IMG/VR virus record: IMGVR_UViG_3300005731_000013
Location: 32,001 to 96,000 of that record
Direction: 5' to 3' (one strand)
Origin: a virus
Length of the DNA: 64,000 nucleotides
The notes under the pieces were generated by a model. The model was not told where the DNA came from. It did no database searches and worked only from the letters and a program-made list of their open reading frames with translations. A program made the position numbers and the translations under genes. How positions within the stretch are numbered: position 1 is the stretch's first letter; each line of letters opens with the position of its first letter. Below are positions 8,467-52,916 of this stretch, in pieces.

Positions 8467-10029
8467 TTATGCATGCCATACCCATTTGATTTTTCCTGAA
8501 TCCCAGGTACGTAAAATGCCAGCATTGTTAGTCATTTGAAATTCTGTTAAATCATCTGAATAATATTCAGGCAATTTGTTTTTAATTCCTTTACGTGTGA
8601 AATAACTACAATGTCTCCATTTATTATCATACAAGTATCTATATGTTGGGCGTTGTTCTTCAATTTTTGTAAACCCTGTTTTTTCATATAAGTCACCAGT
8701 AAACCAATCATTCATTGAAAATGATACTACTTTATCGAATTTCAATTCGTTCTGTGCAAATTTAAAAGTTTTACTGAATAGACCTGGATGTGTATATTCA
8801 TCTGTCACCCACCGTTTTAATTCAAAATGTTGATTGCGTGACATACCAAATGACATTACACCTATTATTCGATGCATTGCATCAAATGCCGCAAAATGCG
8901 TTCCTGCTACATATCCTTGAAGGTGATATTTATTTAAAAAAAGTTTGGCAGCCTTACCTGAAATTTTATCAATTGTTGCTTTTCTAGCAGGGACGCCACG
9001 ATTCTTTAAATTCAATGAAGATTGGATCATTCTTTTGAATTTATCTTTATTATTATTCCAATCTGTCTCCCAAATCTGAATTAATCTTATTCCTTGATTG
9101 CGGGCTGAGTTCCATTTGTCTTGATGATATTTTTTATCTCTTTTTAAATCACTATGCCAATAATCGCCATTCATTTCAATTGCAAGATTATGACTTGGCA
9201 TGTAGAAATCCAATTCATAAGGAGGTATAATAGTTCTTATATTTTGATCAAATGTCACATTACAGTCATTCAAAAATGTTGCCATTTCCTGTTCTAAATA
9301 TGATGTTTTTAAAAATTCTGTTAAATTATGTTCGTGAATTTTTCGAATGATTGTAGATTTATTAACGCCAATTTCTTGAGCTAACTCACGGATAGATTTA
9401 GTTGTCAGTTCATGTTTTAGATTTGATTTATCTGATAAAATTAATTGGTATTTTGTCTCAATATGCTTATTATTGAAATGTGAATTTCCATATCTATCGT
9501 AATTAGTCTGAATTTTTTTATGCTGTATCGCTGCACTTAAAGATGGATTTTCAACACCATAGTTTTTTATTAAAGTCTCTGTTTTTCTTTGTTTTATAAT
9601 ATCACATTGTGACGGATTTTCAACACCATATTTGGACAAATTAGTTTGAAGTCTAATTTGTTGACCATGTTCAGTTTGTGAATGATATTTGACTCCAAAA
9701 TTTTGTAATGAGGTTTGCTCTTTTTTCAGCTTGACTTCAGAAGAATTATTACTGCATTTTGAACTACAATAACTTCTATAATTACCTCGTTCAGTCTGAT
9801 AGTGCGGGTTAACCACATTGTCCCATTTAACAGGTTGATTACAAGCAGAATTCATACAAGTCAACACACTATTATGTCCAGACATCAAATGCCAAACAAT
9901 TTGTTTGGGTGTAGCATTTATCTGTATTTCTTCATCTAATACTGATAGATCGTATGATTTTAATAATGAACGAGCAATCCTTTTTTGAGCATATAACTTT
10001 TGTAATTCAGACTGATTCATAATAATCAT
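8467..10029 (-). mobile_element. Free-standing Hef/Vsr-like (DUF559-type) endonuclease with C-terminal GNAT-like domain, copy 1 (inside terL)
   Basis: Zn finger (CMNSAC...YCSSKC), YGVENP repeats, HTH, ELDFYMP..LAIEMNGDYWHS, ELKRW...WDSGK. Confidence 0.85.
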
Positions 10030-10045
10030 ATTACTATCATTTTAG

Positions 10046-10948
10046 TTATTTGTCAATGGTTTCAAACAGATCACCAATTGTCTGATCATATTCGCCATTT
10101 TCATCCATTAATTTCAATAGTGTATTGTATGTCAAACAAAGGTGTTCACGACGGAATCTCTCATCACCAATCTTTTGTTGTTCTTCATCTGCCCATGCCT
10201 GGTCTCGATCTGGGTGCTCTTCCCACGTAACAATATATGGACGGAATCCATTTGTTCCGACTTCTGTTTCATTACCATAATCATCAAGGCGTTTATTAGC
10301 CTGCTTCCAAATTTGAGCAAATTGGTCATCATCTTGGTTAGGCGTAGAAGTGATAATACATTTACCACCTGTAGATAGAGTTGGTGAAATAGAGGTCCAA
10401 AATTCCTGCGCAACACGAGGTGGTACAAACGCAAATTCGTCCAAGTAAACTAGCGAAAGTGACAAACCTCGGCCTGTGTTTTCTGTAGTAGCCTGTGCAA
10501 TAATCTTGCTACCGTTGTCAAATTCAATGCTACCTTTATTATATGCAGTAACACCTGCACGAATATGATCTGGGCAACTTTCATACATGTAACGCAATCG
10601 TGTCATGATTTCATTTGCACCATCACGTTTATGTGCAGCCACAAGAATTGTTTTATCAGACTGAAACATTGCAAACCAAAGTAAGTATGCAGCCGCACAT
10701 GTTGATTTACCAGTTTGCCTAGAGAGCAAACTGATTGAATATCTGTAATCGTTATAGGAATTAATCAATCCTACTTGATAATCATATAACTCGAATGGCA
10801 TACGACCTTTAGTAGGATGTTGAATATAACAATAGTTACGGATAAAGTGCAACGGATTGATTGAACATAATGCCAATTCTTTAAGTTGATGTTGACTGAC
10901 CGTTTCTTCTTGGTATGGTTTTTTGATTAAGTCTGTATTGACAGCCAT
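10046..10948 (-). CDS. gp17: Terminase large subunit, N-terminal ATPase part plus split-intein IntN (30 aa)
   Basis: LYDYQ adenine motif, SRQTGKS Walker A, YLDEFAF Walker B, ITSTPN, FRREH; ends with CLTYNT...DLFETIDK. Confidence 0.93.
   Translation of the reverse strand: MAVNTDLIKKPYQEETVSQHQLKELALCSINPLHFIRNYCYIQHPTKGRMPFELYDYQVGLINSYNDYRYSISLLSRQTGKSTCAAAYLLWFAMFQSDKTILVAAHKRDGANEIMTRLRYMYESCPDHIRAGVTAYNKGSIEFDNGSKIIAQATTENTGRGLSLSLVYLDEFAFVPPRVAQEFWTSISPTLSTGGKCIITSTPNQDDDQFAQIWKQANKRLDDYGNETEVGTNGFRPYIVTWEEHPDRDQAWADEEQQKIGDERFRREHLCLTYNTLLKLMDENGEYDQTIGDLFETIDK
10049..10138 (-). mobile_element. Split intein, N-terminal fragment (IntN)
   Basis: Block A CLTYNTLL...TIGDLF starting exactly after RREHL. 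Confidence 0.85.
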
Positions 10949-11770
10949 TTATTTGCCTAGATTCGAATCTTCTTTAAACGCATTATATTCATTCAACATT
11001 GATTCATCAGTGTGGCTTTCTTGAACAGATACTTTCATTGCCTCTGCATTCAAATAACGACGCAATGAATTATCAATTGTTTCACCATCTGGTTGTTCTT
11101 GATAATTACCACGATCTTCAACATCACCAGCTACTGAGTTTGACCATTCACGCATTTGACCTTGTTCCGTTCGGATATTCATTCCGCCATTCATAGTTGT
11201 ATAACCTGGTTCGATCTGTGGTTTCATACCTTTTTCTGCATATTTTTGCATCAAATATTCTGCTCGTTGATCTGCTTCTTCTTTTGTTCGTCCCAAAGCC
11301 ATAGCAGTAGCTCTGGATCCTTCAGGCTTGTTATGCGTAGCACGCCATTTATCATGTCCAATAAAAGTAACCTTTCGCATATAATTTGCAGCATGAACTC
11401 CAATAGATTTACTTGGGTCAAAATCAACAGTTTCTTCTGATACCTCATCTTTGTCTATGCGTTCGTTATGCTTTTTCATATCAGTATCAAATTGTTCATC
11501 TAGATCATAATGTAACATCATTAAATCATTAATAAGTGCTTTAATTTGATCTGTTGGCAATCTGTTTACTTGGTCTTTTAAATATGATTCTGAATCAGAT
11601 GTTAAATAATTATCTATGATTTGATCGAATTCAGCTCTGTCTTCTTGATTCACAGATATATCTAACTCTTCAACATATTCGCCTGCTGTTTGACCATCAA
11701 TATCATATGATTCAGTAATCAACGTCGGGACACCTGCTAGCTGGCGCAATCTATTTAATTCAGTTGTCAT
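10949..11770 (-). CDS. Probable internal head/virion protein
   Basis: N-terminal ELNRLRQLAGV matches the scaffold C-terminus ELKKLAGL; acidic protein. Confidence 0.55.
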   Translation of the reverse strand: MTTELNRLRQLAGVPTLITESYDIDGQTAGEYVEELDISVNQEDRAEFDQIIDNYLTSDSESYLKDQVNRLPTDQIKALINDLMMLHYDLDEQFDTDMKKHNERIDKDEVSEETVDFDPSKSIGVHAANYMRKVTFIGHDKWRATHNKPEGSRATAMALGRTKEEADQRAEYLMQKYAEKGMKPQIEPGYTTMNGGMNIRTEQGQMREWSNSVAGDVEDRGNYQEQPDGETIDNSLRRYLNAEAMKVSVQESHTDESMLNEYNAFKEDSNLGK

Positions 11771-12285: not shown

Positions 12286-12339
12286 GAGTCTCCTATTATT
12301 ATATATTTATGCGGTATGTTCCAAATACATCATATCAAC

Positions 12340-12873: not shown

Positions 12874-12890
12874 GACGGCTACTCCTTATT

Positions 12891-14742: not shown

Positions 14743-14743
14743 A

Positions 14744-15373
14744 TTATTCGTCTCTATATGTATACACTGTCACATCATCTGAAAAATCACCGTCGTAATA
14801 AACTTGCACCTTTTCAGGTTGAAATGTTACTGTTAGCATTGCAGGATTACTATCACTATAATCTAACGTATCACCTACAATGTCAGTTATTAAAGGATTT
14901 TTCAAAACAGTAGTTCTAATAAAATCATTATGTCCAGGCTGGACTATTCTAATATCTGTAAAAAAATTACGATCACTTGTCGGTGTATATCCGGCATCAG
15001 ATGACAATACATCATTAATAGTAGATACGCCCACATGTAAGTCTGTCTGCTCTATCCCTAAATTGTCATTATAATAATGCTTGATATATCTACGTAAAAT
15101 TCTGAACCATTCACTATCATATGTGTCATAAAATGAAATAGTAATCGGACTATAATTCATTTTTGTTTGCACTACTCGCTTATTATTATATTGATTTGCA
15201 ATCATAGTATCGAAATTGAAACTCGGTGTTGTGACAGATGCCACACGATCAATTATCGTATATGTGCCGTCATAAATTGAAAACCCCAAAGTAAATTGGA
15301 ATTTTTGACGTGGCACTCTTACTTGCTCTGCATCACTACGATATGTTTCTTGTGCAAAATTACGAATAGCCAT
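14744..15373 (-). CDS. Tail-tube-like baseplate/tube initiator protein
   Basis: Tube-fold motifs (QYN...Y.PITISFYD, LDYS) paralogous to the neighbouring tube gene. Confidence 0.7.
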   Translation of the reverse strand: MAIRNFAQETYRSDAEQVRVPRQKFQFTLGFSIYDGTYTIIDRVASVTTPSFNFDTMIANQYNNKRVVQTKMNYSPITISFYDTYDSEWFRILRRYIKHYYNDNLGIEQTDLHVGVSTINDVLSSDAGYTPTSDRNFFTDIRIVQPGHNDFIRTTVLKNPLITDIVGDTLDYSDSNPAMLTVTFQPEKVQVYYDGDFSDDVTVYTYRDE

Positions 15374-15400
15374 ATATATCTCCTTCATATATTTAGTCAG

Positions 15401-15432: not shown

Positions 15433-15438
15433 AATATA

Positions 15439-16044
15439 TTAAACTGTTGAGCCTGATTGTGTATTGGTATCAACATTAAATGTTGGGTCACTCAATGTAT
15501 CTAAGCTTCCAACATAATGTGCAGCGTTATCATAACGCAATTGAACTGAGATAGATTGATATTCACCACCACTTGCATAGTTTGTTTCATTGTATGCTAA
15601 ATTCGAAATATAACAGCCACTTAGAACCCATGTATCCAATACCGTTGGATTCGGATTAGCACCATTAAGGTTTTCAATAGCTATTTCAAATTTATAGCTA
15701 GTTCCTGCTTGTGGTGAGCTTTGGTTTGCCATATCAATTTGTTTTGCAACTTGTTGATCAAGCAATGTGCTGGTTGCTGATGTAATGTCATCACGCAACT
15801 CAATTGTCACTGGGTCCCAGGTATGTTTTCCTGCCAAATAAATTCGTGAGTTGTATGTGTCTACAAGAACTTCATCATGAGTCATATTTGGGCGGGTGAC
15901 ACTTATAACGTTGTTTGTTGCAACTTTTGTATCGCCTGAACCCATGTTGATAAAGTTAACGCGGAAACGGTATTGTAGTTTAGGCATAAGTGTTCCGCTT
16001 GACTCTCCATTAACTGGAACACTCAATTTATCTAATACGGCCAT
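15439..16044 (-). CDS. gp19: Tail tube protein gp19
   Basis: PKLQYRFRV, YLAGKHTWDPVTIELRDD, W.LSGC, LRYDNA; TATAAATA late promoter upstream. Confidence 0.88.
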   Translation of the reverse strand: MAVLDKLSVPVNGESSGTLMPKLQYRFRVNFINMGSGDTKVATNNVISVTRPNMTHDEVLVDTYNSRIYLAGKHTWDPVTIELRDDITSATSTLLDQQVAKQIDMANQSSPQAGTSYKFEIAIENLNGANPNPTVLDTWVLSGCYISNLAYNETNYASGGEYQSISVQLRYDNAAHYVGSLDTLSDPTFNVDTNTQSGSTV

Positions 16045-16125
16045 AATGATTATCTCCTAGTAAATATTTCATATAAGTATTTATAAGAATTGACAAAAAA
16101 ATCATTCTAGTTTAAAATCAAAGGT

Positions 16126-17643
16126 ATGAAAATAATGAGAACACCTAAACGATTATTCTGGATTCACGTTAAAGACCTTGACTTATCTAATATAGACCCA
16201 AACATCGTTGCATCTAAAAATGCAGCTCGTGTAAAATGGCACTTAGATAATGAAATTGCATCTACTCCGCATTGCATCAATCAAAATTGTAATAATGAAG
16301 TTAAATGGAAGGCAGGGCATGGTTACCAAACATTTTGCAGTCGTAAATGTAGTGCGCAAAATGAATCAATCAAACAACAAAAGAAAAATACATGTGAACA
16401 AAAATATGGTGTGTCAAATCCGAGCAAAAACACAGAAATTAAACAAAAAATAAAAGATACAACGAATAAACGATTTGGTGTTGACCATCCGTTGCAAAAT
16501 GACGATATTATGACTAAAACCAAGAATACGAATATAGCCAAATATGGTGTGTCGTCATACTCACAAACTGCTAAATTCAAAGAATTGGTCTCAGGTGACA
16601 GTAATCCGAATCGTCAACGGTTTTCACAAGACACATTAGATATCTTGAATAGTAAATCAAAATTTAATAGTTTGGCTGATGGTAAATCGATTTATGAGTT
16701 AAGTGACGCTTTAGAAAAGTTTGATATATCTACTTTACGAAAGTATATTCATCAATATGACAGTAATGTATTATTGCGACGGTCACAATTAGAACATGAA
16801 ATGGCTGATTTTTTGAATGATTTAGATGTTAAATTTATTCAAAATGAACGCAATATTATATCTCCACAAGAACTAGATTTTTATTTACCTGATCATAATA
16901 TTGCTATCGAAATGAATGGTATCTACTGGCATTCCGAAAAGTTTATTTCTGATAAATTTTACCATTATAATAAATGGAAATCATGTCATGATAACGATAT
17001 CCACCTGATATCTATTTTTGAAGATTTATGGATAAATCATCCAACTAAAGTCAAACAAGCATTAATATCATTATTGGGATTGCGACATAGTCCAGTAATT
17101 GGGGCGCGAAAGTTGCAAATCATGCAAATAAATGCAACCATTGCACGGCCATTTTTAAACAAATACCATTTACAAAATTTTGTGAATGGAACACATTTTG
17201 CTGCATTCAACTATCAAATGCAACCAATGGCAATCATGACATTTGGAATGTCACGAAATCAACATTTTGAACTTAAACGGTTTTCTACAAATGGCGGGAA
17301 TTTTCCAGGTGTGGCCTCTAAATTATTCAAATATGCACGCCAACAATTAGCATTTGATAAGGTTGTCAGTTTTAGTGATAATACATGGTTTACAGGCAAG
17401 ATGTATGAACATTTAGGTTTTGATTTTGAAAATGTAATTCAACCGTCATATAAATATTTTTATAAAGGAAATTTAGTTCATTGCTCGACTTTTACAAAAC
17501 AAAATATAGTTAGGAAATTTCCATATATGAAAGAAGCAATAGATAACGGAATGACTGAAAAAATTGCCATGCAGCAACTTGACATACCACGTGTATGGGA
17601 TTGTGGCAAGAAAAAATGGTTATGGACTGATAGAAACGGTTGA
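16126..17643 (+). mobile_element. Hef/Vsr-like endonuclease-GNAT, copy 2
   Basis: Same architecture (FCSRKC, YGVSNP repeats, ELDFYLP..IAIEMNGIYWHS, WDCGK); own TTGACA-N17-TAAAAT promoter. Confidence 0.85.
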
Positions 17644-18970: not shown

Positions 18971-19416
18971 GATTCAAGCACCACAATTTGTAAATTGATG
19001 ATAACACTTGCAACAATTCCTGATAACGATGTGATAAGAGCAGCACTCATTCCTTGTGCCATCATTGCCAAGGCCGTCGTCATTGCCAATGTATCTGATG
19101 GGTCTAGAATTACGCCCGGACCAAATACTGCCCACAAGACTATCATAAACCCACTTAACGTGCCTATCAGCCCTATAGATATTACGCTCTCACTCATAAA
19201 ATATAACATATCGTTATTAGTATATTGTTTGGTATAATATTTCCATCCGAGCAATATATGAGATGACACCAGAATTCCTATGTTTACAAATGTCAACATT
19301 GTTTGATCATAAATTTGAATAAATTCAAATAAACCAAAATAAAAGTGACCAGTTGCTAATACAAATACCATTAGGACTAAAATTGTCCAGAATTTCCAAA
19401 ATTTAATTTTTTCCAT
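18967..19416 (-). CDS. MotA/TolQ/ExbB proton channel family protein
   Basis: IGLIGTLSGF...GMSAALITSLSGI signature TM hairpin; likely start MEKIKFW. Confidence 0.75.
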   Translation of the reverse strand: MEKIKFWKFWTILVLMVFVLATGHFYFGLFEFIQIYDQTMLTFVNIGILVSSHILLGWKYYTKQYTNNDMLYFMSESVISIGLIGTLSGFMIVLWAVFGPGVILDPSDTLAMTTALAMMAQGMSAALITSLSGIVASVIINLQIVVLES

Positions 19417-21040
19417 TATTTTTCCAAATATATTTTGCATTTCCACAATCCCAAATTCGAAGCCAGCCATTATTTGTCATATTATCATATTGACTTTGCG
19501 TGTTGTCATAATGCTTTAAAAGTGTAGTTAAATTTGATCTTACTGCTTTGTTTCGTGATATTACGTCATATGTTCCTCTTCCTGTTTGCTTGGCATACAT
19601 ATAGCCTGGTTTTGAAAATGACACAAATTCAAACCCGTAACGGCTATAAACATTATCAGCATTGCCAAATCTAAGATTGGCGTATGTCAATAATGATTCA
19701 AAATCTTCTTCCTTGCATGAGTTGACCAACAATTTACTGAACCCGCCAGGAATATGATATCCATTTTTGATAGCAAATCTTGCAATTTCAAAAGTATCAG
19801 GGCCTTTGTTAAATCTGTCATGAATGAATGAAATCGCTGCTACTAATTCACCAGATGAAGTTTTCAACCCATAATTTATTTTTGTTTTGACATCACCCAT
19901 CAAATGATTTTCATTCATAAACACTTGCTTGTCAGAATGTTGAAGTTTGACAAACTTCAATTTCCTAGCATATATCTTTGTTTCATATTTGCCCAAACAA
20001 TGACTGATCATGCCTGTTACTAAATCAAATTTATTTTCAATCTCATGTTCAAAAAACGTCAACAATCTGATATTCTTATCTGAACACATTTTGAACTTAT
20101 CTTTCGAAGTATGTTTATTACGAGGATCAATTAAATCTGAATGCCAATAAATTCCATTCAATTCAATAGCAAGATTATATTCTGGTATCCAAATATCCAA
20201 TTCACGTTCTATTACATCTCTGTTATTTGTTTCAAAATACACATTTTGTGATATCAAATAATCTGCAATATAACTTTCTATTTTTGATACAGGTTTACGT
20301 GTTATTTTTAAATCATGCTTTCGAATATAACTCAGCAATGTTTTTGGTGTTATTTGAAGGTCGTCAGCATATTGTGTAAATGTCTTAGATTTGTCATCAC
20401 AAATTTGTTTACAAAACTCTACATTTGATAATTTTTCTAATAGTGATTCAGACATATGTTGCTGCGTATAATATTTGTTTCCAAACATTTTATTATGTGA
20501 ATCTCTGATTTTATCTATTACGAGTTGTGATTTTGCAGGATTATCATAACCATAACGTTCAATATTGGTCTGCTTAATCTTTTCTCGAATTTCAGGCGAG
20601 CTCGCTGGAGTTTTGGTCCCATAACGTTTTAAATTAGTCTGTTCACGAATAGTCTTTGTATGATTAAATGTATGCGTATCTCCATACTTATTTAAATTTG
20701 TTTGTTTGATTTTTTCAAATTTTGTTGATTTTGGATCATTTGAACATTTATTCGAACAAAACTTACGAAACTCTTTTTTGACCGTATCTAATGTGGTCTG
20801 TTTCCCACAAATCATACAATGATTAGTAATGGCTATATCATTGATGATAATCATAATCACGGCAGATAATTTATAATTTTGTAAGTTGTGCTTCTTGACA
20901 AATGGACTAACTATTGTTATGATATCGTCATAATGCTTCGAAGTTGTTCGAACAGTATTGGCATTGACCCTTCCTTTTGAATCAATTATCTTTGGAATTT
21001 TTAATAGTTCTGCCTTCGTCATTACAATACCTTTTAGCAT
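19403..21040 (-). mobile_element. Hef/Vsr-like endonuclease-GNAT, copy 3
   Basis: FCSNKC, KQTNL.RYG repeats, ELDIWIPEYNLAIELNGIYWHS, IYARK...EIARF...WDCG; TATAAATA upstream. Confidence 0.85.
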
Positions 21041-21062
21041 TATTTATACAGGTATTCAGACT

Positions 21063-29855: not shown

Positions 29856-31208
29856 ATGCAGCATTTTTATGATGAATCTATTAGACGATACTTATTGCAA
29901 TTTGTCAGAATCTTTGGTTCATTCACTGTCCAAAAAGGCAAGGATGTCCAAGGAAATCCAGTTTATGAATCTGTGCCTGCACGATATGGTGACATGAGCC
30001 GCAATGTAGGTCACATTTTGAAAAACAATAGTGAAAATACATTGAATGCTGTTCCTTTTATTAGCTGTTATGTTAACAATTTAGAAATGAATGCTGATTT
30101 ACGACGCTACCCACAATTTCAAGAAACATTACAGGTGATTGAAAAGGAATTTGATGAAAATCAACACAAATATGTTGATGAACCTGGTCAGAGTTATGAT
30201 GTGACACGTTACCAACCTGTGCCATATATGTTAACTATGACTGTCGATATATGGACAAGCAACACTGATCAGAAGTTACAACTATTAGAACAGATCCTCG
30301 TATTATTTAACCCAGGCATAAATTTACACACTAATCAAAATACACTTGATTGGACAAGTTTAACATATTGTGAATTGACCAGCACTAATTGGTCAAGTAG
30401 AACTATGCCATCAGGGACTGACACTGTGATTGATGTCGCAACATTAACTTTTGAAATTCCAATCTTTATCAATCCACCAGTGCGTGTCCAACGAATGAAT
30501 ATTATCCAAACAATATTAACTAAAATGCATACATTGGATTTAGTTGATTTTGAGACATGGTCAATCGACGACCTTACCCCTGACTCACCAAATTTTGTCA
30601 TTACAACATTAGAAGATTTTTGGCTTAAATTTGAAGATGGAGATGCATTGTTATTAAAATCTGATGGATCTGACCAAGGCGGGGATGGTTCTATTCTGAA
30701 TTGGAACGATGATGTGTTTACAGCATATGGCGAGCTACGCCCAGGAATCAGCCAGATACGCTTACGACAAGGCGGTGACGTTACTGATCCAACAAATGAT
30801 GTTATAGGGACTATCGACTATCACCCTACCAATACACAAATGTTATCTGTTACTATTGATACTGATACTTTACCTTCTAACACACAAACTGCTATCAATG
30901 CAATCATTAATCCTCAATCAAATTATCCTGGTGATGGAACATTAGATGCTGCAATTAGTGGCCAACGATATTTGATATTAGATGAAATTCCAACAGGCGG
31001 GGCTTGGGGGAATATAATCGCTAATACCAATGATATAATTGAATATAATGGATCAAATTGGGTCGTAAGCTTTGACGCCAAAGCCAATAATGATACAGAA
31101 TATGTGACCAATCTTGCTACGTCAGATCAATTTGAATGGTCTGGTTCCTATTGGCAAAACAGTTATGAAGGCATATACAGAGAAGGCTGGTGGCGCTTAT
31201 ACATTTAA
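29856..31208 (+). CDS. gp15: Tail terminator / sheath stabiliser gp15 with C-terminal extension
   Basis: HFYD.SIRRY, VPARYG, PVPY, QLLEQILVLFNP. Confidence 0.82.
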   Translation: MQHFYDESIRRYLLQFVRIFGSFTVQKGKDVQGNPVYESVPARYGDMSRNVGHILKNNSENTLNAVPFISCYVNNLEMNADLRRYPQFQETLQVIEKEFDENQHKYVDEPGQSYDVTRYQPVPYMLTMTVDIWTSNTDQKLQLLEQILVLFNPGINLHTNQNTLDWTSLTYCELTSTNWSSRTMPSGTDTVIDVATLTFEIPIFINPPVRVQRMNIIQTILTKMHTLDLVDFETWSIDDLTPDSPNFVITTLEDFWLKFEDGDALLLKSDGSDQGGDGSILNWNDDVFTAYGELRPGISQIRLRQGGDVTDPTNDVIGTIDYHPTNTQMLSVTIDTDTLPSNTQTAINAIINPQSNYPGDGTLDAAISGQRYLILDEIPTGGAWGNIIANTNDIIEYNGSNWVVSFDAKANNDTEYVTNLATSDQFEWSGSYWQNSYEGIYREGWWRLYI

Positions 31209-31219: not shown

Positions 31220-33130
31220 ATGAAGACACTACATGAATTATATCATAAACGATCATTGCGTATGAGTGAAATATCTCATTTAGATCTTACGTTATTGCCA
31301 CCAAATATCACTAATTTAAAATCTGCCAGACAAATCGTATGGCATTTATATCATCAAATATATAATATTCCGTCTTGCAAACACCCTAATTGTTCTGAAA
31401 ATGCAAAATGGCATCGATCGTATTATGGTAAATTCTGTTCTAAAAAATGTTCAGCATCTGACCCATCTACTATTACAAAAGCACAAACTACAATTATTAA
31501 TAGATATGGAAGTCACAAGCCATTAATTGAAAAAAGTGCAGCAAAACGGAAACAAACAAATTTAGAGAGATATGGTGTTGAAAATCCTTGGGGTAACAAG
31601 TCTGTCAGAGAAAAAATCACAGCGACAAACTTAGAACGTTACGATGTTGAAAATGCTGGCGGCACAGAAATATCACAATTGAAGGCGCAGCATACTAAAC
31701 AAGAGAAGTATGGCGATAAATTTTACAACAACCGACATCAAGCAAAAAAGACAAATTTAGAGAGATATGGAACTGAACATGCGTCACAATGTGATCGTGT
31801 AAAAGAAAAAACTGCAAATACATTTAATACAAAACATGATGGAATATTTCATAATTCGCCATCGATTTCTGAAAAAATTAAAAATACAAAATTAGAAAAA
31901 TATAATGATGAATCATATTCTAATCGTGAGAAAGCTATACAAACTAATTTAGAAAAATATGGTCATTCTAATGTTATGAATTGTCCTGCAATAAAACTAT
32001 CCCATACAAATAAAATGAATGAAGATGACGTCAAGTGCCGTCGTGCAAAAACAATGATTGAACGATATGGCGTATCAAATTTTCAATATATGCACATAGC
32101 ACATGATGATATTGCAGTCTTGACTAACCGCAAATCATTCATTGATTTTTGTAATAATAAAACAATATCAGAAATTAGTAGTTTATTAAATGTTCATCCG
32201 AGTACAATATATAATAAAATCATCAATTTTGATTGTAAAGACGATGTTAATATTGTTAAAGATCATAGCTTATTTGAAATACAAATTGCAAATTTTCTAA
32301 CTTCTTTAGATGTTAAATTTATTCAAAATACTAGACAAGAAATCAAACCATATGAGCTTGATTTTTATTTGCCTGATTATAATATAGCTATTGAATGCAA
32401 TGGCGATTATTGGCATAGTGATATTTTTAAATCAAGAAAATACCACTATAACAAATGGCAAAAATGTGTAGATGCTGGTATTCATCTGTTGTCCTTAGGA
32501 GAATCAGACTGGTATATGAATAATGAGCTATTTAAAAATTTAATCAAATCAAAATTGCATCTTGTCAATACATCCGTCGGTGCCCGCAACTGTGTTATTA
32601 AACGTGTAAATACAAATGAAGTATCACAATTTGTGAATAAACACCATTTACAAGGTCATGCTATTGGAACTCATACATATGCAGCATATGATAAACAAAA
32701 CAATTTGGTTGGTGTAATGATTTTTGGCTGGACACGAGGTTCAAAGCAATCTAGGAGATTTGAACTCAAACGTTGGGTCACTATACCGAACGTTAAGTTT
32801 CCAGGGCTATTCAGTAAAATATTCAAATTTGCACAAAATGATATAGGGTTTAAAGAAGTGATTTCATTTTCAGACAATCGTTGGTTCGCTGGTGATGTAT
32901 ATCATCTTAATAATTTTGAATGTATAAAAACACACCATCCCAATTATTATTATGTGTTAAATGGAAAATCATATCACAAACAAATGTTCATGAAATCAAA
33001 CATCAAGAAAAATTTCAATTTCTTAGCTGAAAGTATTGATAACGGTATGACTGAATTAGAAGCAACTAGAGAGTTAGGTGCGCTTAAAATATGGGATTGT
33101 GGTAAAATAGAATGGAAATGGAGTTTGTAA
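31220..33130 (+). mobile_element. Hef/Vsr-like endonuclease-GNAT, copy 4 (most repeats)
   Basis: FCSKKC, about nine T(N/K)LERYG-type repeats, ELDFYLPDYNIAIECNGDYWHS, WDCGKIEW. Confidence 0.85.
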
Positions 33131-33573: not shown

Positions 33574-35145
33574 TTATCTTCTTAACACCCATTTTCTCTT
33601 TCCACAATCCCAAAGTTTCAATAACCCGATACTTTTACAAATTTCTTTTTCAGTTAAATTTGAATCATATCCTTTAGCCACTAGTTTTTGTTTTGAGTAA
33701 TTAAATCTATGCATCAATTTTTCTTCTTTTGGATGGATATACCAATAACTCACTGGTATATCTTTTTCTAATTCAAATCCTAAAGCAGAGTACAATGCTC
33801 CATTACTCCATTCATTGTTGCTATAAGAAAACACATCTTCATCAGGATATTCATTCAAAAATTTTGATAACAATTTGCTTGCTCCACCAACTATTCGTTT
33901 CTTACTAGCATATCGAACTAATTCAAATTGATCTGTTTTGTTTCCAATCGCGATCCTTGATTTTGAAAATGTCATTACTGCTTGCATTTCGTCACCATCA
34001 AATAATGCATAACATAATGACGCAGGGGTATATCCTTGAATATGATTATTATTCAAAAAATCTTTTGTGTCTTTTGATTTTACTTTTTTAAATTCTAATT
34101 TTCTTGCATACACTGATTCTGATGACATTTGCAATTTATTTTTAATTGTATTTTTTACCACATCTTTTTTTGTATTCCAAAAATTAGAAAATATAGTGAT
34201 CAGTTGTATTCCTAGTTGTTCAGCTTCATCAAATTTTTGTTTATGATAATTTCGACTAATATGTTGAATGTCTTCGTGATGCCAATATATTCCATTGAAT
34301 TCTATTGCGATGTTATAATCTGGCAAATATATATCTAATTCCTTACGTGATGGCAATATAGATCTACTATTTTGGATAATCCTGTCAACCCCTAGACTTT
34401 TAAGGTAATTTACTATTTCGACTTCATATGAACTTTGAAATGGATTTCGAAGTTTGTGCTTGTTTAGGTAATGATATACCGTCTGAATATGAACATTTAA
34501 TTCTACAGCAATTTCAGGAATAGTTTTTTCCTGAAATAATTTTTTAAGTTCATCTGGATTATATAATGTTTCTAAATCTTTTTCTGGAAAAAATGATTTC
34601 CAGAAATCTTGTGATTTTTGATTCCATGTAGTTTTTATTTGTGCTGCATTGTTGTAATTTGGATCACCATATCGTTTTGTCTTAGTGCTTTTAACTTTAT
34701 CAACAATTTCTTTTACTTTACATTCATCATTATATAACTCTTGATGTTTTTTTCTAGCCGATTCAGTTTGCCCATTATTATAAACACCATATTTTTCAAA
34801 TGTTGTTTGCTTCCGCTTTTTAGTAATTGCTGCTTTTTTTTCGTCATTAAAGTCTTGCTTGGTTTTTGATATAGATTTTGACATTTGATTAGCAACACAT
34901 TTACATTTAGATGGGCGACCGCAATTGCCAAATCCATCAGTTATATTTGTAAACTTTTTTATATTACCAAATTGACATCTATTAGATACTTTATATAATG
35001 AACTATAAATATGCTCAGATAATTTTGCATCTTCTTCTAAAAGTGAATTGGATAATATCCAAGTATGTAATGCTTTATCTTTTTTGGCCATCCTTGTATA
35101 ATGTTTTGGGTATTCTGATATCATTGATATTAACTTGTCACGCAT
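33574..35145 (-). mobile_element. Hef/Vsr-like endonuclease-GNAT, copy 5
   Basis: ELDIYLPDYNIAIEFNGIYWH, VYARK, ELVRY, GGASKL, LWDCGK; own ATAAATA just after the gp23 terminator. Confidence 0.85.
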
Positions 35146-35197: not shown

Positions 35198-35227
35198 AAA
35201 AAAATGACGGCTAAAAAGCCGTCATTT
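35198..35227 (-). terminator. Terminator after the major capsid gene
   Basis: aaatgacggct/agccgtcattt stem with a T-run on the minus strand. Confidence 0.8.
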
Positions 35228-45415: not shown

Positions 45416-45427
45416 CAGAAAAATACA

Positions 45428-45856
45428 TTATTTCTTTGGTATTGTGACATCTTTGACATGATTTCGATGAATCTTACCACCTATAAAACTGTTATGATAA
45501 TCTGAACGCAATAATACATCTCTTATGATTTGCTCACGTAGCTCTATATATGACATTTCGCCTTTGCTGTTACACAAATGTAAAATTTCACGAATATAAT
45601 TATCGCCACCATTTGTTTCAACTAATAATTTTAATTCTTCAGAAGAACCGTAATATGATTTCCAATCGGATTCTTTAATTACGGTTCTTTTGCGTTTTTT
45701 GCCTTTTAACGGAGGAATTTTACGAGTTGACCAAAATAATTTTTTACCGATATATTTCATACCCGTAGTTTTTTCAGTAATCAAATAAACAAAACCAACC
45801 CAATTTGAAAGTTCATCCATAGAAGGCTTAAATTCTTCACCATTGTATATCCACAT
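45428..45856 (-). CDS. Minimal GIY-YIG nuclease-domain protein
   Basis: GFVYLIT...KYIGKK, YYGSS, REIL, E...Q, YHN; no C-terminal DNA-binding module. Confidence 0.8.
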   Translation of the reverse strand: MWIYNGEEFKPSMDELSNWVGFVYLITEKTTGMKYIGKKLFWSTRKIPPLKGKKRKRTVIKESDWKSYYGSSEELKLLVETNGGDNYIREILHLCNSKGEMSYIELREQIIRDVLLRSDYHNSFIGGKIHRNHVKDVTIPKK

Positions 45857-46137: not shown

Positions 46138-46152
46138 TTTATATTCCTTTAA

Positions 46153-48720
46153 TTATTCAGTATTACTTATTTCAAATGATGTAAACCCATTTTCTTTTAC
46201 AACATTCAAAATTTTATGAATTCTCCCAACAAGTTCTTCTCTGTGTGAAATTAGGAAAATATTCTTATTACGCTCTCGATTCATTTTCTTCAAAACCAAA
46301 AGCGCACTTTCTACACCGTTTTGGTCTAAACCACTATCAATAAGTTCATCAATAGCCATAAAGTCAATAGGCATATTTGTACATTCATGAACATCACGGA
46401 ACGCCCAACTTAGTCCAAGAATGAGTCGATTGCGCTCACCTCTACTTAGATTGTCAAAATCCAAATCACGTCCTAATTCAGTAATTTCTACTGACAGGTC
46501 ACTTTGGAAGATAACCTCATGTGGCAGACCTAATTTAGTTAGATAATAATTCAATCTCAAATTCAAATATTGTAAATTTTGTTCAATAATGCGTTTACGA
46601 ACAAAGCTATCTTTGTTGGTCAACAATTTCAGCAAGAAATCTTGGTGCTCGCGCAAATTGTGCAACTCATTCATTGTTTCCCAGTCAATTTCTTGAATCC
46701 CACTCTGCTCCAAAATTTCAATTTGATCGCAATATGGATCTTCAGCATTCATTGTTGATTCTAATTGGTTTTGTAATGATGTCAATTGACTTTGTTGTTC
46801 ATATGCTTCTTGTGCAGTAGCATATTTTGTGACAGGAATTGAAGGCTGAATTACGATGTTATCTAATTTAGAAGATAATTCAACAGTTGCTTCATTATAT
46901 TGGCTAATCAAATTATCAAAATCAGCAACAGCCGCGGCCTTTGTTTGCATGATTTGTTCATGTTGCTCATCATGAATATCTTGGCCGCAAGCGTAACATG
47001 TATGCTCTTTAGCAGCATTTAGATCATTCAATGCCTTTTCTTTAAGGCGTGATTCTCGTTGAATACTTGCTTCTAACGTAGCAATTTCTTTTTTAATTTC
47101 CGCACTTTCAGCATGTTTACGATTATATTCTTCTAAATCGATATGTTGTTGTAGCTCATGTTCTAAATCAAGTTTTGACAGGAAATCAATTGATTTAGTC
47201 AATAATTCGATTTCTTCGTTATTCTTATTAGCCCATACCCGCTGTCTTCGTTTTAAATCTGAAATGCTTTTTTCAATTTGCTCATTAGCATTTTTGATAC
47301 CATTAATACGAAATTCTTCTTCTTTGATTTTATCTTTTGTGTTTTTCAATAACTCTCGTAACACAACAGCTTTTTCACTTAGCATTGTTATGCCTAGCAA
47401 ATTCTCAATAATTTCCCGTTGATCATTTGCTCGTAATGCAAGAAATGGTTCATTATATGTGTTCAATGCAACCAAATGTTTGAACATTAAATGATTCATG
47501 CCTACTACTTTTTCAATTTCAAGTTGGGTTAATCTTGATTCGCCTTGTCCTTCATCAGTTTCTTCAACATTTACACCATCTACTAAAAATCGCAATACAT
47601 TAGGACTGCGCCCCCGTTCAATTCGATAATGGGTCTGATTTATATCAAATTCAACAGTCACCAACATACCTTTTGAATTTGTCTTGTTGATTAAATTATT
47701 CTTCTTAATATTACTAATAGCATTGCCATATAATGCATAGCTCAATGCATTTACCATAGTGGTGTTATGAGTTACAATAAAATCATCAGTAATATATAGA
47801 TGATCTGGATGATTGATCATGATACACTGTGCTTTATCTTTTCCAATGAATTTGATATCAGTGATTTTCAGACCATTTGTATTATCTGTATTGGTCAATC
47901 TATCCTTCAACGTTGGATCAGTTACAAGTGACTGCAAGTCATTATGTTTTATATATAGGTGATTGACGCCATCAACTTCATCTATATTTACAATCCCACC
48001 AACACTGCGAATCAAAAATTGCAAGTCATGTGCTAATAATTTATCATATGTAGAATAACGAAGAATCTTGCTATCACAAAACCCATTTACATCCATTAAA
48101 CCTTGAATCAATGCTTTCCGTTGTGACAATGATGCAAATTTATAAGGACCAATCAAATTATAGCCGATTGGCGAGGTTCTATAAACTAAATCATTATTTC
48201 CTAATAATACACCAGTTGAATATGGATCTGCAGGCAGGATAACGTGAAAAATATCATCTATTGGGTCCACCAAAGGAATAAACATTTCATTCTTGACATC
48301 AAGATTCATGATTTCAGTTGTAGACAATGTCATATATTCTGTAGGATCATCAAAAGAATTTGACTTAACATTCCATAAATGATCTCCACAAGCATGAGTT
48401 TTTCGTCCATCCTCAAATGTTAATTCATAAATGTCAACCATACCTTGAGGAAAAATACCAATTACAGATGCATTTTTGCCATCCGGAGTAGATACTACAT
48501 CATGAAGTTTGATATCACCCATGGTCGTCCAACCCTTAGGTGTGTGAATCTTGCTATATAGCGGTTGTGCTTTGCCTACACCATTTCTTGACCCATCACC
48601 TCCAAGATCCAGGTTATTACCTAATACAAGTGTCAATCCTGAGTCTTCAAAATTAATTGCTTGGGTGATGTTGCCAACACTCAAAAAGTTTTTAATTGTT
48701 ACATTTTTGATTTTGATCAT
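46153..48720 (-). CDS. gp46: Recombination exonuclease subunit gp46 (Rad50/SbcC) containing an intein
   Basis: KNFLSVGN, Walker A NGVGK|T interrupted, Zn hook CYACGQ, LSRGE signature, IDELID, ISH. Confidence 0.93.
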   Translation of the reverse strand: MIKIKNVTIKNFLSVGNITQAINFEDSGLTLVLGNNLDLGGDGSRNGVGKAQPLYSKIHTPKGWTTMGDIKLHDVVSTPDGKNASVIGIFPQGMVDIYELTFEDGRKTHACGDHLWNVKSNSFDDPTEYMTLSTTEIMNLDVKNEMFIPLVDPIDDIFHVILPADPYSTGVLLGNNDLVYRTSPIGYNLIGPYKFASLSQRKALIQGLMDVNGFCDSKILRYSTYDKLLAHDLQFLIRSVGGIVNIDEVDGVNHLYIKHNDLQSLVTDPTLKDRLTNTDNTNGLKITDIKFIGKDKAQCIMINHPDHLYITDDFIVTHNTTMVNALSYALYGNAISNIKKNNLINKTNSKGMLVTVEFDINQTHYRIERGRSPNVLRFLVDGVNVEETDEGQGESRLTQLEIEKVVGMNHLMFKHLVALNTYNEPFLALRANDQREIIENLLGITMLSEKAVVLRELLKNTKDKIKEEEFRINGIKNANEQIEKSISDLKRRQRVWANKNNEEIELLTKSIDFLSKLDLEHELQQHIDLEEYNRKHAESAEIKKEIATLEASIQRESRLKEKALNDLNAAKEHTCYACGQDIHDEQHEQIMQTKAAAVADFDNLISQYNEATVELSSKLDNIVIQPSIPVTKYATAQEAYEQQSQLTSLQNQLESTMNAEDPYCDQIEILEQSGIQEIDWETMNELHNLREHQDFLLKLLTNKDSFVRKRIIEQNLQYLNLRLNYYLTKLGLPHEVIFQSDLSVEITELGRDLDFDNLSRGERNRLILGLSWAFRDVHECTNMPIDFMAIDELIDSGLDQNGVESALLVLKKMNRERNKNIFLISHREELVGRIHKILNVVKENGFTSFEISNTE
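47764..48570 (-). mobile_element. Cis intein (269 aa), Ala1 class-3 type, with degenerate LAGLIDADG domain
   Basis: AQPLYSKIHTP...DHLW...GLMDVNG...AQCIMI...YITDDFIVTHN followed by Thr+1. Confidence 0.88.
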
Positions 48721-50269
48721 TAGTCCAGTTCCATTCAGTTTTTCCTGAATCCCATATTCTTAGAATGCCTGCATTGTCCATCATTTCTTTTTCAGTTAAA
48801 ATACAGTTATAATGTTCAGGTAATTTTAGTTTTATTTGTTGTTTTGTGAAATGGCTGCAATGTTTTAATTCACCATTAAATAGATATTGATATGACGGAG
48901 GAAGAGTCTTGCCTTTTGTGAATTTACATTGAGAATACACATCTCCAGTAAACCAATCATTCATTGAAAAGCTTACAACATTGTTAAATTTGAGTTCTTT
49001 TTGCGCATGAGCAAATGTTTTGCTGAATAACCCTGGGTGTGTTTTGTTATCAGTTGCCCAACGTTTGAGTTCAAATCTCCTAGATTGTCTTGACCCTCTT
49101 GTCCAGCCAAATGTCATAACTCCGATTAAATTATTTTGCTTGTCATATGCACCCCAATAACTTGTGCTTATAACAAAGCTTTGTAAATGATATTTATTTA
49201 AAAACTTCCTGGCACTTTTGGCGTCAATTTTAGAAATATAACATTGACGCGCCCCTATACCTTTTTGCTTGATATGCACATGTGTTTTGATTAATTCAAT
49301 AATTTTTTCTTTTTGTGTATGCCAAGTTGATTCAGAAATTTGTAATAACGTTATATTTTGATCTTTACATTTTTGCCATTTGTTATAATGATAATCTTTA
49401 GATTTGAACAAATCACTATGCCAATAATCGCCATTACATTCAATAGCTAAATTATAATCAGGTAAGTAAAAATCTAACTCTTGGGGATGAATAATATTGC
49501 GGTCATTGAACACAATATTAGTCAAATTTAAATTATCCAATACTGCTTTAATTTCTGTTTCAAAATTGCTACAATAAAATTTAAAATCTATGTCGTATTT
49601 TTTAATATGATTATATACAGTATATTGATCAACACCTAGTTTTTTAGCAACATTCAAAACTGAATTATGTTTAAGTAATTCAGTTAATTGTGATTCATCT
49701 AATAGGATTTGTTTTGCGAGGTCAGATATATGTTGCTGACTTGGATGACCATTATATCTTGCATGATTGGATTGTAATGTTTTTTGTTTGATAATATCTG
49801 CTTGGGCAGGATTTAATACACCATATTTTTCTAAAGTTGTTTGCTGTGCTTTATATTTTAAAGAATCTGATTGCATAGCATATTCTACATCATGTCGGTC
49901 CAACATTGTAGATTTGAATTTAGATTTTAACAATTCAGATTGTAATGCATGTTCATGGCCATAACGTTCAGTCATTGTAAATTTGAATTTAGATTTTAAC
50001 AATTCAGATTGTAATGCATGTTTATGACCATAACGTTCAATCATAGTGTTATTTTTTGCAGTTTTAAATGATTCACTATTTGCACGACATTTTGCAGAAC
50101 AAAATGATGCGTAGTTTTTTCTCTGCCATTTTACAATATTATTGCATTCAATACAAGTAGGAATATGTGCGATATCATTTATTAAATGCCAAACAATTTG
50201 ACGAGCATTAGTTGAATTAACAATATTATCATCCAAGGCTGAATAATCAATATCAGATAAATCTGACAT
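48692..50269 (-). mobile_element. Hef/Vsr-like endonuclease-GNAT, copy 6
   Basis: FCSAKC, ERYG repeats, ELDFYLPDYNLAIECNGDYWHS, WDSGK; overlaps the gp46 start. Confidence 0.85.
49904..50041. repeat. 69-bp tandem duplication inside endonuclease copy 6
   Basis: Two units about 65/69 identical, encoding ERYGH(K/E)HALQSELLKSKFK(F/S)TM. Confidence 0.9.
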
Positions 50270-50303
50270 TGTTAACCGACTCTTATCCCACAACTTGTTT
50301 AAA

Positions 50304-51323
50304 TTATAAGTTATTATATATATCCATTAATAATTTTTGACTAATAATGTCACTTTCAACAGATTGCAATTGATTATATACAATTTGATCTACACTTTCG
50401 ACAATTATTTCGCCATTGTTGACGGTTTCTGCTGAAATTTCTTCTTTCTTCATAGGAACAAGACTTAATTCACGAGGATTAAATTGTGCCATAAATGTTT
50501 CTTTAATAAAGTTAGCTTCTTCGTAACTAATAGGAACATCAAGCATTGTTCTGCAATAAGTTTTATCATTCAGGTAGTCCTCAGGTGCATCAATTAAATC
50601 ACTAAGATTAATGCGAATGTAGCGCGGGCCGTCATAATTGACATAAGTTGGTTCACCTCCCCACTCTAAAAACATGCAACCACGGTCGTCATCCCATGCA
50701 TCAGCATAGTTATGTGCAAAAGGACTACCTAAATAATGAACTTTTTCTCGAATTTGTCGTTTATGGAAATGTCCTGAAAACACATAGTCAGCAGCATGGA
50801 AGTCAGCAGTTTGCAACTCACCATAGTCTGGCATTTCTACAATTGCGTTCATCATAAAATGTGGCAACTCAAAATGTCCAAAAACATATTTACTTTTGAG
50901 CTTTTTCATTTTTTTCCATTCATCACCAATTAACCAAGGAACAAGAGCAACATTACCTTGTTCTAAAATATCATCATTGATGATGTGAATATTTTCAAAT
51001 AATTCGCCATACGGAAAAGAATTGATTTCACGTTTTTCCCTATAGAATAAGTCGTGATTACCAACCAACATATAGATATCATCAAAAGCATCACTTAATG
51101 CCTTAAGATTGCTGACTGAGTAATTTAATGTAGACACATTGACACTTGACCTATTATGATGTAGATCACCAAGAAAAATGCACGTCTCACAACCACGTGC
51201 TTTAGATTCTTTGATAAACCAAGTTACAAATTCTTCACAATCAATGTTGTGTGTGCGACTGTTATTACGGTAGCCGAAATGTATGTCTGTGAAACATGCG
51301 GCGTGTTTAAATAAATTTGACAA
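50304..51323 (-). CDS. gp47: Recombination endonuclease subunit gp47 (Mre11/SbcD)
   Basis: TDIHFG, LGDL, VGNHD, GHFE, SGHFH phosphoesterase motifs. Confidence 0.93.
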   Translation of the reverse strand: MSNLFKHAACFTDIHFGYRNNSRTHNIDCEEFVTWFIKESKARGCETCIFLGDLHHNRSSVNVSTLNYSVSNLKALSDAFDDIYMLVGNHDLFYREKREINSFPYGELFENIHIINDDILEQGNVALVPWLIGDEWKKMKKLKSKYVFGHFELPHFMMNAIVEMPDYGELQTADFHAADYVFSGHFHKRQIREKVHYLGSPFAHNYADAWDDDRGCMFLEWGGEPTYVNYDGPRYIRINLSDLIDAPEDYLNDKTYCRTMLDVPISYEEANFIKETFMAQFNPRELSLVPMKKEEISAETVNNGEIIVESVDQIVYNQLQSVESDIISQKLLMDIYNNL

Positions 51324-51371
51324 ATATTTTTCCTATATATACTATAATTCTACTTATTAACCTATTGAAAG

Positions 51372-52916
51372 TCAACAATTTTTCCATATCCACTCAATTT
51401 TTCCACTATCCCAAATACATGGTATGTGCAACAATTCCATCATTTCTTTTTCAGTCAAATTTTTATCAAAAATATCTGGAAATTGTTGTTTTATACGAGC
51501 CTTTGTGAAATTACTGCAATGTGTTCGTTTATTTCGCCAAACATAAAAATATGAGGGAGGAACAACGTTCGCTGCATGAAATTGATTGCAATCATACAAT
51601 TGACCATCAAACCAATCATTCATTGAAAACGAGACTATTTCATTAAATCCGATATCTTTCTGTGCTTGTTTGAATATTTTACTGAACAGACCAGGATGCG
51701 TTTTATTATCTGATACCCAACGTTTTAATTCGAACCGTCTAGATTGTCTTGACCCTCTTGTCCATCCAAATGTCATAACAGCAATTAGTGTATCATTGTC
51801 GAATGCACCATAATGGATTCCACCAACAAAATTTTGTAAATGATATTTGTCAACAAATGGTCTAGCCATTGCTGCATTGATGACAGATATATCCGCTTTC
51901 CGTCCACCTATACCTTTTGGTTTATTATGCAATTTTGATTGTATTAATGCTTTGACTTTATCAAAATTTGACACAAAATCACATTCAAATATTTGAATAA
52001 GAGATATATTGTTTTCGTTAGCCAAGCGCCATTTATTAAAATGATAATTCTTGTCTTTGAATTTGTTGGAATGCCAATAATCACCGTTACATTCAATACC
52101 TAGATTTAATTCAGGAAGCCATATATCTATTTCAAAAGGAGGTATGATGTTATATGAATTTTGTTCTATTTTGATATCAGAGTTGATAGATTTGATAATG
52201 TCAACAATACCAGTCTCCAAGTAACTTGATTTTTTACATATATTATTAGTATCGATATCATGTACAGAAATATATCTAATGATAGTATTGCGGTCAACAG
52301 ATAGATGAGAGGCTAATGTTCCAGGAGTCATATTTGATAATGCAGTCTCGAATATACGCTTGTCTTCTAAAAACGACAAAATATCCGAAGACATATTAAT
52401 ATGGGAAATATGTTCCACGCCGTATTTTTTGAGTAAGGTTTGTTTTCTATTTTTAGAACCAACAATAGAATTTTGATTAGTAGCAAAAGAGTGAATGTCA
52501 GGATTTTGGAATGAAAACTCATAGCCATATTGTTCTAACATTGTTTTTGATCGTTTTAATTGTGATGTGGGATTTTGAAATGAATAATTATAACCGTGGC
52601 TCTTTAAATTTGATTCAGCCAATGTTTTTTTAAATTTACCACATCTTGCTCTGCATTTTGCTGAACAATATTGTGGATATTGATTGCGGTCTGCATTCCA
52701 TTTTAAAGACTTAGAACAGTTATCATTTTGACAAATAGGCACCTCGACTATTTGATTTTTACAATGCCAAATTATTTGACGGGCTTTAAACTTATTCCAA
52801 TCTGTGGGAATAATATCCCATAGATCAGATTTCTTAATCATATTAATGGTGACTATTTGCTTATTTGAAAATTCATCGTCAATTATTCGATTTGCCTGTG
52901 TGAATTGTATAGACAT
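51372..52916 (-). mobile_element. Hef/Vsr-like endonuclease-GNAT, copy 7
   Basis: YCSAKC, YGY.FSFQNP repeats, EIDIWLPELNLGIECNGDYWHS, WDSGKIEW. Confidence 0.85.

Follow-up and report, generated by a model that had tools for sequence, protein, structure and literature searches.

Introduction

Hef of phage U5 is said to have been described by Sandegren et al. in 2005. Hef-like enzymes such as those of NCTC12673 and the Dickeya phage LIMEstone1 (F-Lim), and presumably that of U5, belong to PHROG 3339, and their genes are free-standing, placed beside conserved genes and in some genomes present in several copies; in LIMEstone1 Hef-like genes are found beside those for the tail tube and the baseplate (PMC3296691). 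Here we describe a further set of such genes in a window of 64,000 nucleotides that corresponds to bases 32001-96000 of the 167,976-bp phage contig IMGVR_UViG_3300005731_000013 from IMG/VR, the completeness of which is estimated by CheckV at 46% (coordinates are those of the window unless given as genome positions). The proteins encoded share with the known Hef-like enzymes their PHROG, their nuclease and their C-terminal domain, as well as the free-standing, multi-copy arrangement beside conserved genes. What differs from the known systems is that the phage is an uncultured relative of jumbo phages, that one copy is associated with an intein, and that the arrays of repeats at the DNA-reading end reach nine units.

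Further systems bear on this set. The EDxHD family of nucleases, which is homologous to Vsr, has been stated to include "bacteriophage Hef type homing endonucleases" (Taylor et al., PMC3239194), and I-Bth0305I (Dassa 2009, Taylor 2011), a protein of 266 aa with a NUMOD/helix-turn-helix (HTH) region followed by the nuclease, has a catalytic domain homologous to the one found here, but no Mom-like domain. In the "fractured genes" of Dassa et al. 2009 a Vsr-like endonuclease gene is located between the two halves of a split intein, and these include a terminase locus from GOS with an unusual C-part of 122 residues (PMC2677866). Expansions of T5orf172 and IPA-HNH genes in ICP1 and other phages have copies that cluster beside terminase, capsid and replication genes, with modular, repeated DNA-binding domains and domain swapping (Barth et al. 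2023, PMC10448857); their nucleases are GIY-YIG-like and HNH, whereas those described here are Vsr-like. All of the elements of the present set have precedent, namely Hef sets of several copies, the gathering of endonuclease genes around essential genes together with modular DNA-binding repeats (PMC10448857), terL fractured by an atypical split intein (PMC2677866) and fusions of Mom to a nuclease (PMC7824862), and as such fusions have been noted previously the identity of the Mom-like domain was known already.

Identity and arrangement of the endonuclease genes

The genes described here are probably free-standing homing endonuclease genes of the Hef-like family. A preliminary description of the window reported seven copies of one modular endonuclease family that together took up about 11.3 kb, or 18% of it, and all seven are present as intact open reading frames (ORFs) of 505-636 aa with one common architecture, covering a measured 11,349 bp (17.7%). 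The count of seven holds for the window, although a search of the whole contig found an intact eighth copy on the minus strand just outside it (genome 26747-28354, 3.6 kb before the window). By sequence the copies are members of the phage Hef-like homing endonuclease family, PHROG 3339, with a predicted nuclease of the Vsr-like EDxHD type; the seven window copies match the PHROG 3339 profile, annotated as "homing endonuclease", over approximately 90% of its length with E-values of 8e-81 to 6e-109, a near-full-length similarity for which chance is excluded. They align with one another end to end at 26-44% identity, and the residues that are invariant between them fall in the motifs E..D, E.NG.YWH, H.Q, E..R, G..SK and WD.G.

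The profile of the family also matches the catalytic domain of I-Bth0305I (PDB 3R3P), with an E-value of 2e-7 when built from the eight copies and of 4.5e-9 when built from 70 sequences. The family residues E245, D274, E285 and H292 are found in 69-70 of these 70 sequences and N287 in 66; in the alignment, the residues opposite I-Bth0305I E170, D196 and H213 are present in 69-70 of the 70 homologues and that opposite N208 in 66, so that E, D, N and H are all kept at their places. An N-terminal NUMOD/HTH region of the EDxHD type was not found in the copies, which instead have weak HTH matches, a zinc ribbon and repeats of the DUF7487 type. Within T-even phages a gene of vB_Eco_F26 located in the slot between nrdA and nrdB matches PHROG 3339 (E = 1.6e-151), and the nrdB-cleaving Hef of phage U5 is likewise encoded between nrdA and nrdB (PMC2988022). 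Homologues are annotated as Hef60 in NCTC12673 and as "Hef-like" in Jersey and several Klebsiella phages. The genome of NCTC12673 has 12 matching places, as does that of an uncultured 462-kb phage, and a PA5oct-like phage has five. The homologue in AR9 lies inside a coding sequence annotated as joined from three pieces, which is a classic kind of niche for a homing endonuclease.

Each copy had been described as lying beside an essential core gene, which stands for neighbours that encode a tail tube protein, the tail sheath, a gp15-like protein, gp23, gp46/gp47 and gp55, but copy 1 is inside terL and not beside it. Copy 1 (8467-10029, minus strand, 520 aa, four repeats; PHROG 3339 E = 5.6e-93) is found between the two halves of a fractured terL. 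Copy 2 (16126-17643, plus strand, 505 aa, three repeats; E = 1.6e-100) lies between a tail tube gene and a 142-aa ORF and is antisense to its late-gene neighbours, and copy 3 (19403-21040, minus strand, 545 aa, four repeats; E = 2e-95) is downstream of the tail sheath gene. The longest is copy 4 (31220-33130, plus strand, 636 aa, nine repeats; E = 6.8e-101), between the gp15-like and NUDIX genes, the frame of which is open from a GTG at 31190. Downstream of gp23, the major capsid gene, is copy 5 (33574-35145, minus strand, 523 aa, two to three repeats; E = 5.6e-109). Copy 6 (48692-50293, minus strand, 533 aa, five repeats; E = 2.2e-95), which starts with TTG or with an ATG 24 nt further in, separates gp47 from gp46, and copy 7 (51372-52916, minus strand, 514 aa, three repeats; E = 8e-81) separates gp55 from gp47.

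Some candidate signals are found around these genes. Copies 3 and 5 come after hairpins located downstream of the sheath gene and the capsid gene respectively, with a terminator-like hairpin at 35202-35227 between gp23 and copy 5, and TATAAATA is present at 21041-21048, abutting the first ATG of copy 3. Upstream of copy 2 there is an 11/12 sigma-70-like match at 16090-16118, but a scan for sigma-70 promoters gave match counts no higher than those in shuffled sequence, and since shuffled sequence gives as many matches it is a lead only.

Architecture of the DNA-reading end

The domain order first proposed for the family was borne out: a Cys4 zinc ribbon comes first, then repeats, an HTH, the Vsr-like nuclease and, at the C-terminus, a domain of about 190 aa. 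The repeats, of which there are two to nine per copy, are of 23 aa and of the (Q/K)TNLE(R/K)YGVENP type, and resemble Pfam DUF7487 in its first half only; the HTH region gives only weak Pfam matches, and in copy 8 a second CxxC...CxxC element (zinc ribbon) takes the place of the HTH found in the other copies. An AlphaFold2 model of copy 6, made from a 70-sequence alignment, has a mean pLDDT of 95 and shows, from the N-terminus onwards, a helical part that includes a four-Cys zinc ribbon, five regular helix-loop units with a period of 23 aa, a helical HTH region, an alpha/beta nuclease domain and a GNAT-like alpha/beta domain. The family member in AR9 has CapR and DUF4379 modules instead of repeats, a replacement which makes the modularity of the DNA-reading end clear, and as both of these modules are described in PMC10448857 it follows that different families have DNA-binding modules in common.

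Between paralogues the DNA-reading half is on average 29.5% identical compared with 38.9% for the catalytic half; by domain the values are 25% for the zinc ribbon, 29% for the repeats, 20% for the HTH, 41% for the nuclease and 36% for the Mom-like domain. Orthologues at the same site have identities of 58 and 68%, 50 and 56%, and 39 and 67% in their N and C halves respectively, and the ratios of N- to C-half divergence in same-site orthologues and in paralogues are too similar to decide on retargeting. The proposal that new targets are acquired by changes in the repeat and zinc-finger region is nonetheless consistent with the data, and we infer that the repeat array may set the target.

Empty sites and a remnant in related phages

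The sheath protein, gp23 and gp47 served as queries for the retrieval of related loci from IMG/VR, the flanks of each copy were mapped in them by tblastn, and a site was counted as empty when the gap between its flanks was below 400 bp. Between gp55 and gp47, where the gap here is 1608 bp, 68 of the 75 loci with both flanks are empty and a Hef gene is present in none; between gp47 and gp46 (1583 bp here) 74 loci out of 79 are empty, again with no Hef gene in any. The site between the sheath gene and ORF167 (1647 bp here) is empty in nine out of ten loci, the tenth having a different Hef lineage, and that between gp15 and the NUDIX gene (1903 bp here) is empty in 11 out of 12. The twelfth of these, L258 (contig 3300022689_000130), has a gap of 464 bp in which a frame of 91 codons (L258:1165-1383) aligns with the Hef profile in the Mom-like part alone (E = 1.5e-18) and looks like a decayed endonuclease gene. 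No Hef gene was found between ORF142 and the tube gene (1886 bp here) in nine loci, two of which are empty, and between the NUDIX and major capsid genes (1693 bp here) the one close relative that can be compared, L258 again, has a gap of 239 bp. The more distant relative L205 has a Hef gene at that site, with no more than 26% identity to copy 5. Three close relatives of approximately 90 kb have no member of the family, and of two others one has a single copy as well as the remnant and the other has two copies.

Far from being fixed and syntenic in all relatives, the copies are therefore set against empty alleles that dominate at six of the seven sites, whilst the seventh has one comparable relative, which is empty. 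The view that they are selfish elements of the homing type is upheld by this polymorphism of presence and absence, by orthologues at the same sites and by the one decayed remnant, and together these make homing well supported by comparison, with cleavage and target sites being presumed. Several stages of the life cycle of homing elements can thus be seen from one contig, namely occupied sites, empty sites and a decayed remnant.

Under this explanation each protein would have a modular DNA-reading end, made up of a Cys4 zinc ribbon, two to nine helical repeats of 23 aa and an HTH (in copy 8 a second zinc ribbon), and a second end in which a Vsr-like nuclease of the EDxHD type precedes the Mom-like GNAT domain. 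In a mixed infection with a related Hef-free phage the enzyme would cut the naive genome in or near the adjacent conserved gene, and recombinational repair would then copy the endonuclease gene and flanking markers into it. Copy 1 would occupy the classic niche inside an intein, that of terL being split into an IntN of 30 aa and an IntC of 123 aa, from which TerL would be trans-spliced.

A number of observations weigh against this explanation. The site between ORF142 and the tube gene is less cleanly empty, as seven of the nine relatives have gaps of 518-909 bp. That between the NUDIX and major capsid genes can be compared in L258 alone amongst close relatives. Opposite Asp222 of I-Bth0305I, the fifth residue of EDxHD, this clade has an invariant His, in a part where the alignment is short. 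The suggested link to Hef of U5 draws on gene position, annotation and two secondary sources. Finally, the classical homing model gives the conserved Mom-like domain no role, and Iyer et al. 2021 (PMC7824862) see in the same fusion a weapon that resembles restriction-modification.

Lineages of the copies

The set had first been described as an expansion within the genome, and this is not supported. A tree was made from the nuclease and Mom-like region of 71 sequences by a quick IQ-TREE search with SH-aLRT support, in which branches with support of at least 95% were starred. The eight copies are not monophyletic in this tree, its starred branches force at least six separate placements, and for every copy there are closer relatives in other contigs. 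The partner of copy 4 is P0038 (support 98), which in its own contig is also found between gp15 and NUDIX, and a gene 58% identical to copy 4 is present at the same place in L331. For copy 7 the partner is P0014 (96), flanked by a gp55-sized ORF and gp47; in the contig of P0014 gp46 follows directly after gp47, with no counterpart of copy 6 and no intein. L271 has a 56% identical counterpart of copy 2, which is likewise inverted and located upstream of the tube gene. A starred branch unites copy 5 with a gene of another contig, and copy 3 has such a partner at 83% support, on a long and unreliable branch. For copies 1 and 6 no lineage at the same site was found, their nearest homologues, P0019 and P0011, being located at other sites beside gp13 and gp15.

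It might be thought that the copies are the product of a recent burst, in which one founder was duplicated within the genome and its descendants were retargeted to new core genes by changes to the repeats and zinc finger. There are eight copies in 168 kb compared with none to two in the closest large relatives, the number of repeats ranges from two to nine, and the N-terminal halves have diverged more than the catalytic halves, all of which a burst could account for. It would seem a very improbable history, however, given that paralogues are merely 26-59% identical in any domain, that the tree requires at least six separate placements and that starred branches join copies 4, 5 and 7 each to a gene of some other contig (copy 3 less securely, as above). 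Furthermore the same-site orthologues of copies 4 and 7 match them in the N-terminal region too, at 58 and 50% identity, and that of copy 4 is of equal length. The absence of monophyly and the orthologues found at the sites of copies 2, 4 and 7 therefore point to accumulation and not to a local burst, and it fits the data better that the set comprises separate, apparently old, site-specific lineages that have come together in this genome.

The Mom-like domain

The C-terminal domain is predicted to have a Mom-like GNAT fold. When this domain was compared with the PDB by Foldseek the top match was Mom of phage Mu (8BV8, E = 9e-8, probability 1.0, TM score by target 0.55-0.58), with generic GNAT acetyltransferases ranked behind it, and hhalign of the domain profile against Mu Mom gave a probability of 88%. 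Sequence searches of the PDB did not find Mom, even with the 70-sequence profile, and it was only the fold search and hhalign that did so. Equivalents of Mom H58 and R111 are present in all 70 family members, of Y159 in 69 and of S124 in 62; the equivalent of D149 is found in 33 out of 70 and that of R151 in 19, with both together only in copy 4 amongst the window copies. Pfam Mom (PF25680) is matched only by copy 6, at 23.8 bits and thus under the gathering threshold of 27.1, and many metagenomic homologues carry a precomputed match to PF25680. The domain therefore has in common with Mu Mom the GNAT fold and the equivalents of H58, R111, S124 and Y159, and its fusion to a nuclease of restriction-endonuclease fold is as reported by Iyer et al.; it differs in having 16% identity in the structural alignment, a sub-threshold Pfam score, no conservation of D149 and R151, and a genomic behaviour that resembles homing. 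Mom takes glycine from Gly-tRNA and attaches it to adenine at N6 in double-stranded DNA, and R111 and S124, as well as D149 and R151, are essential in the Mu enzyme (PMC13219725). As this chemistry is now known, the role of the GNAT domain in a homing enzyme is directly testable.

In group 2 jumbo phages Mom domains fused to nucleases of restriction-endonuclease fold have been read as restriction-modification-like, and PA5oct, which is the nearest isolate, was counted as having five of them (Iyer et al. 2021, PMC7824862). If this was extended to the present proteins they would be single-chain weapons, the Mom-like domain protecting the phage genome by modification of adenine and the nuclease attacking host DNA or that of superinfecting phages, with the genes kept for conflict and not for spread. 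The structural match to Mu Mom, the result from hhalign, the equivalents of H58, R111, S124 and Y159 in 62-70 of the 70 family members and the occurrence of these fusions in PA5oct all lend something to this explanation. However, a genome-wide defence needs no eight paralogues with differing DNA-reading arrays, nor would precise insertion sites that are empty in close relatives, a location inside a split intein or interrupted gene, or three close relatives without any copy be anticipated, and two of the residues essential in Mu Mom, D149 and R151, are not conserved. We therefore consider such weapons a rather unlikely explanation of the set, although homing endonucleases themselves exclude superinfecting relatives and both readings overlap to that extent. 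The literature is in conflict here, with some authors treating this protein family as homing endonucleases and others as restriction-modification fusions of the Mom type.

A way in which homing might make use of the domain can be suggested. It is possible, though well short of probable, that Hef-type enzymes are "cut-and-protect" selfish elements on one polypeptide, in which the Mom-like domain would mark an adenine within the recognition site of the enzyme itself using an activated acyl or aminoacyl donor. If this is true the genome that carries the gene would be immune even though a free-standing gene leaves its target undisrupted, and the eight copies would constitute eight orthogonal mobile homing systems, each resembling restriction-modification, in a single phage.

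Copy 1 and the fractured terL

The first of the homing endonuclease genes sits inside a predicted, atypically split intein that fractures terL. The N-half of terL (10046-10948, minus strand, 300 aa) encodes the ATPase domain (Pfam Terminase_6N) and an N-terminal intein part (IntN) of 30 aa at 10049-10138, and the C-half (7370-8485, minus strand, 371 aa) encodes a C-terminal intein part (IntC) of 123 aa at 8117-8485 followed by the extein with the nuclease domain. The N-half is colinear with the contiguous TerL of PA5oct as far as ...RFRREHL, after which there are 30 extra residues (CLTYNTLL...ETIDK-stop); the C-half starts with 123 extra residues, which contain TDNH and end in ...ILVSN, and is colinear again from CEFIAFDETLI. 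The residues for splicing are present, with Cys1, the block B TxxH motif (TDNH), a terminal Asn and a +1 Cys, and with Ser instead of His as the penultimate residue. The intein is split after block A, and its IntC matches CatC, an engineered consensus atypical split intein (6DSL_B, E = 4.4e-11). Because the splicing motifs are present and TerL is essential, we infer that the protein would be rebuilt by trans-splicing.

A group I intron was also considered as the cause of the interruption around copy 1. Rfam gave none at gathering thresholds across the whole window, and nothing relevant at E<=10 within 7300-11000; it is the intein motifs, and not a group I intron, which explain the interruption of terL.

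Out of 80 related IMG/VR loci 78 hold both halves of terL, and in 77 of these the gene is unbroken and reads RFRREH-x-CEFIAFD or RFRREHLNEFIAFD across the junction. The remaining locus, L017 (IMG/VR contig 3300022689_000130), has a TerL that is 86% identical and the same split intein with a different gene inside it, which encodes a DUF7487-type protein of 359 aa between the terL halves (L017:6898-7977, plus strand). The match of this protein to Pfam DUF7487 runs through to where the profile ends. The protein has a zinc finger and similar 23-aa repeats, but a different C-terminal domain with a D...EVK motif, with neither the EDxHD nuclease nor the Mom-like domain. From the same intein with a different gene it follows that endonuclease genes turn over within one intein niche. 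The same split intein would thus house different putative endonuclease genes in two related phages, and an essential packaging enzyme would depend on protein splicing.

The terminase locus of Dassa et al. resembles this arrangement in its break of terL at one point, its short IntN (30 aa here), its long IntC (123 aa here and 122 there) and the Vsr-like gene on the same strand between them. What is different is that the locus described here is part of a long phage contig and has many intein-free relatives, and that in L017 another endonuclease gene is present in the same split intein. Protein engineers may also find a use for the atypically split intein of TerL and for its natural variants.

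Two further inteins are associated with genes next to members of the set. Directly upstream of copy 8 is a UvsW-like helicase gene (the region with both of them is genome 26747-30425, 1.6-5.3 kb before the window; L343:748-4426), which is fractured in the DExH motif by a conventionally split intein with a 63-bp gap and no gene between the halves. Its N-half ends ...VIVDE/CLDGDT...TANH..., with matches to Pfam Intein_splicing/Hint, and its C-half starts with an IntC of 35 aa ending VVKN/CHLGK. The second is in gp46 (Rad50/SbcC-like, 855 aa; ORF 46153-48720, minus strand), which has a contiguous intein of approximately 269 aa in Walker A (47764-48570) with the borders ...NGVGK/AQPLYS...FIVTHN/TTMVNAL. 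As in class 3 inteins its first residue is Ala, block B is followed by a Trp, and blocks F and G contain a Cys and a Thr respectively; it matches mycobacterial DnaB inteins (6RIX, E = 6e-8). This intein is absent in 76 out of 78 relatives, and the other two carry a larger intein, 38-39% identical, at the same point.

Genomic setting

The gene content of the window is T4-related and includes TerL, a portal, a prohead protease, gp23, the sheath, two tube-like proteins, a gp15-like protein, gp46/gp47 and gp55. The nearest isolates are jumbo phages, with the ATPase half of TerL being 61% identical to that of Pseudomonas phage PA5oct; Atu_ph07, Phosso and GAP32-like phages come next. No close relative at the DNA level was found by megablast amongst isolated phages, the only match being of 180 bp in the capsid gene at approximately 82%. 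The two tail-tube-like genes are adjacent paralogues on the minus strand (14744-15388 and 15439-16044) that match PHROG 4542 with E-values of 3e-19 and 2.5e-48 respectively. Elsewhere in the window an ORF of 142 aa (45428-45856, minus strand) adjoins its sole long non-coding stretch.

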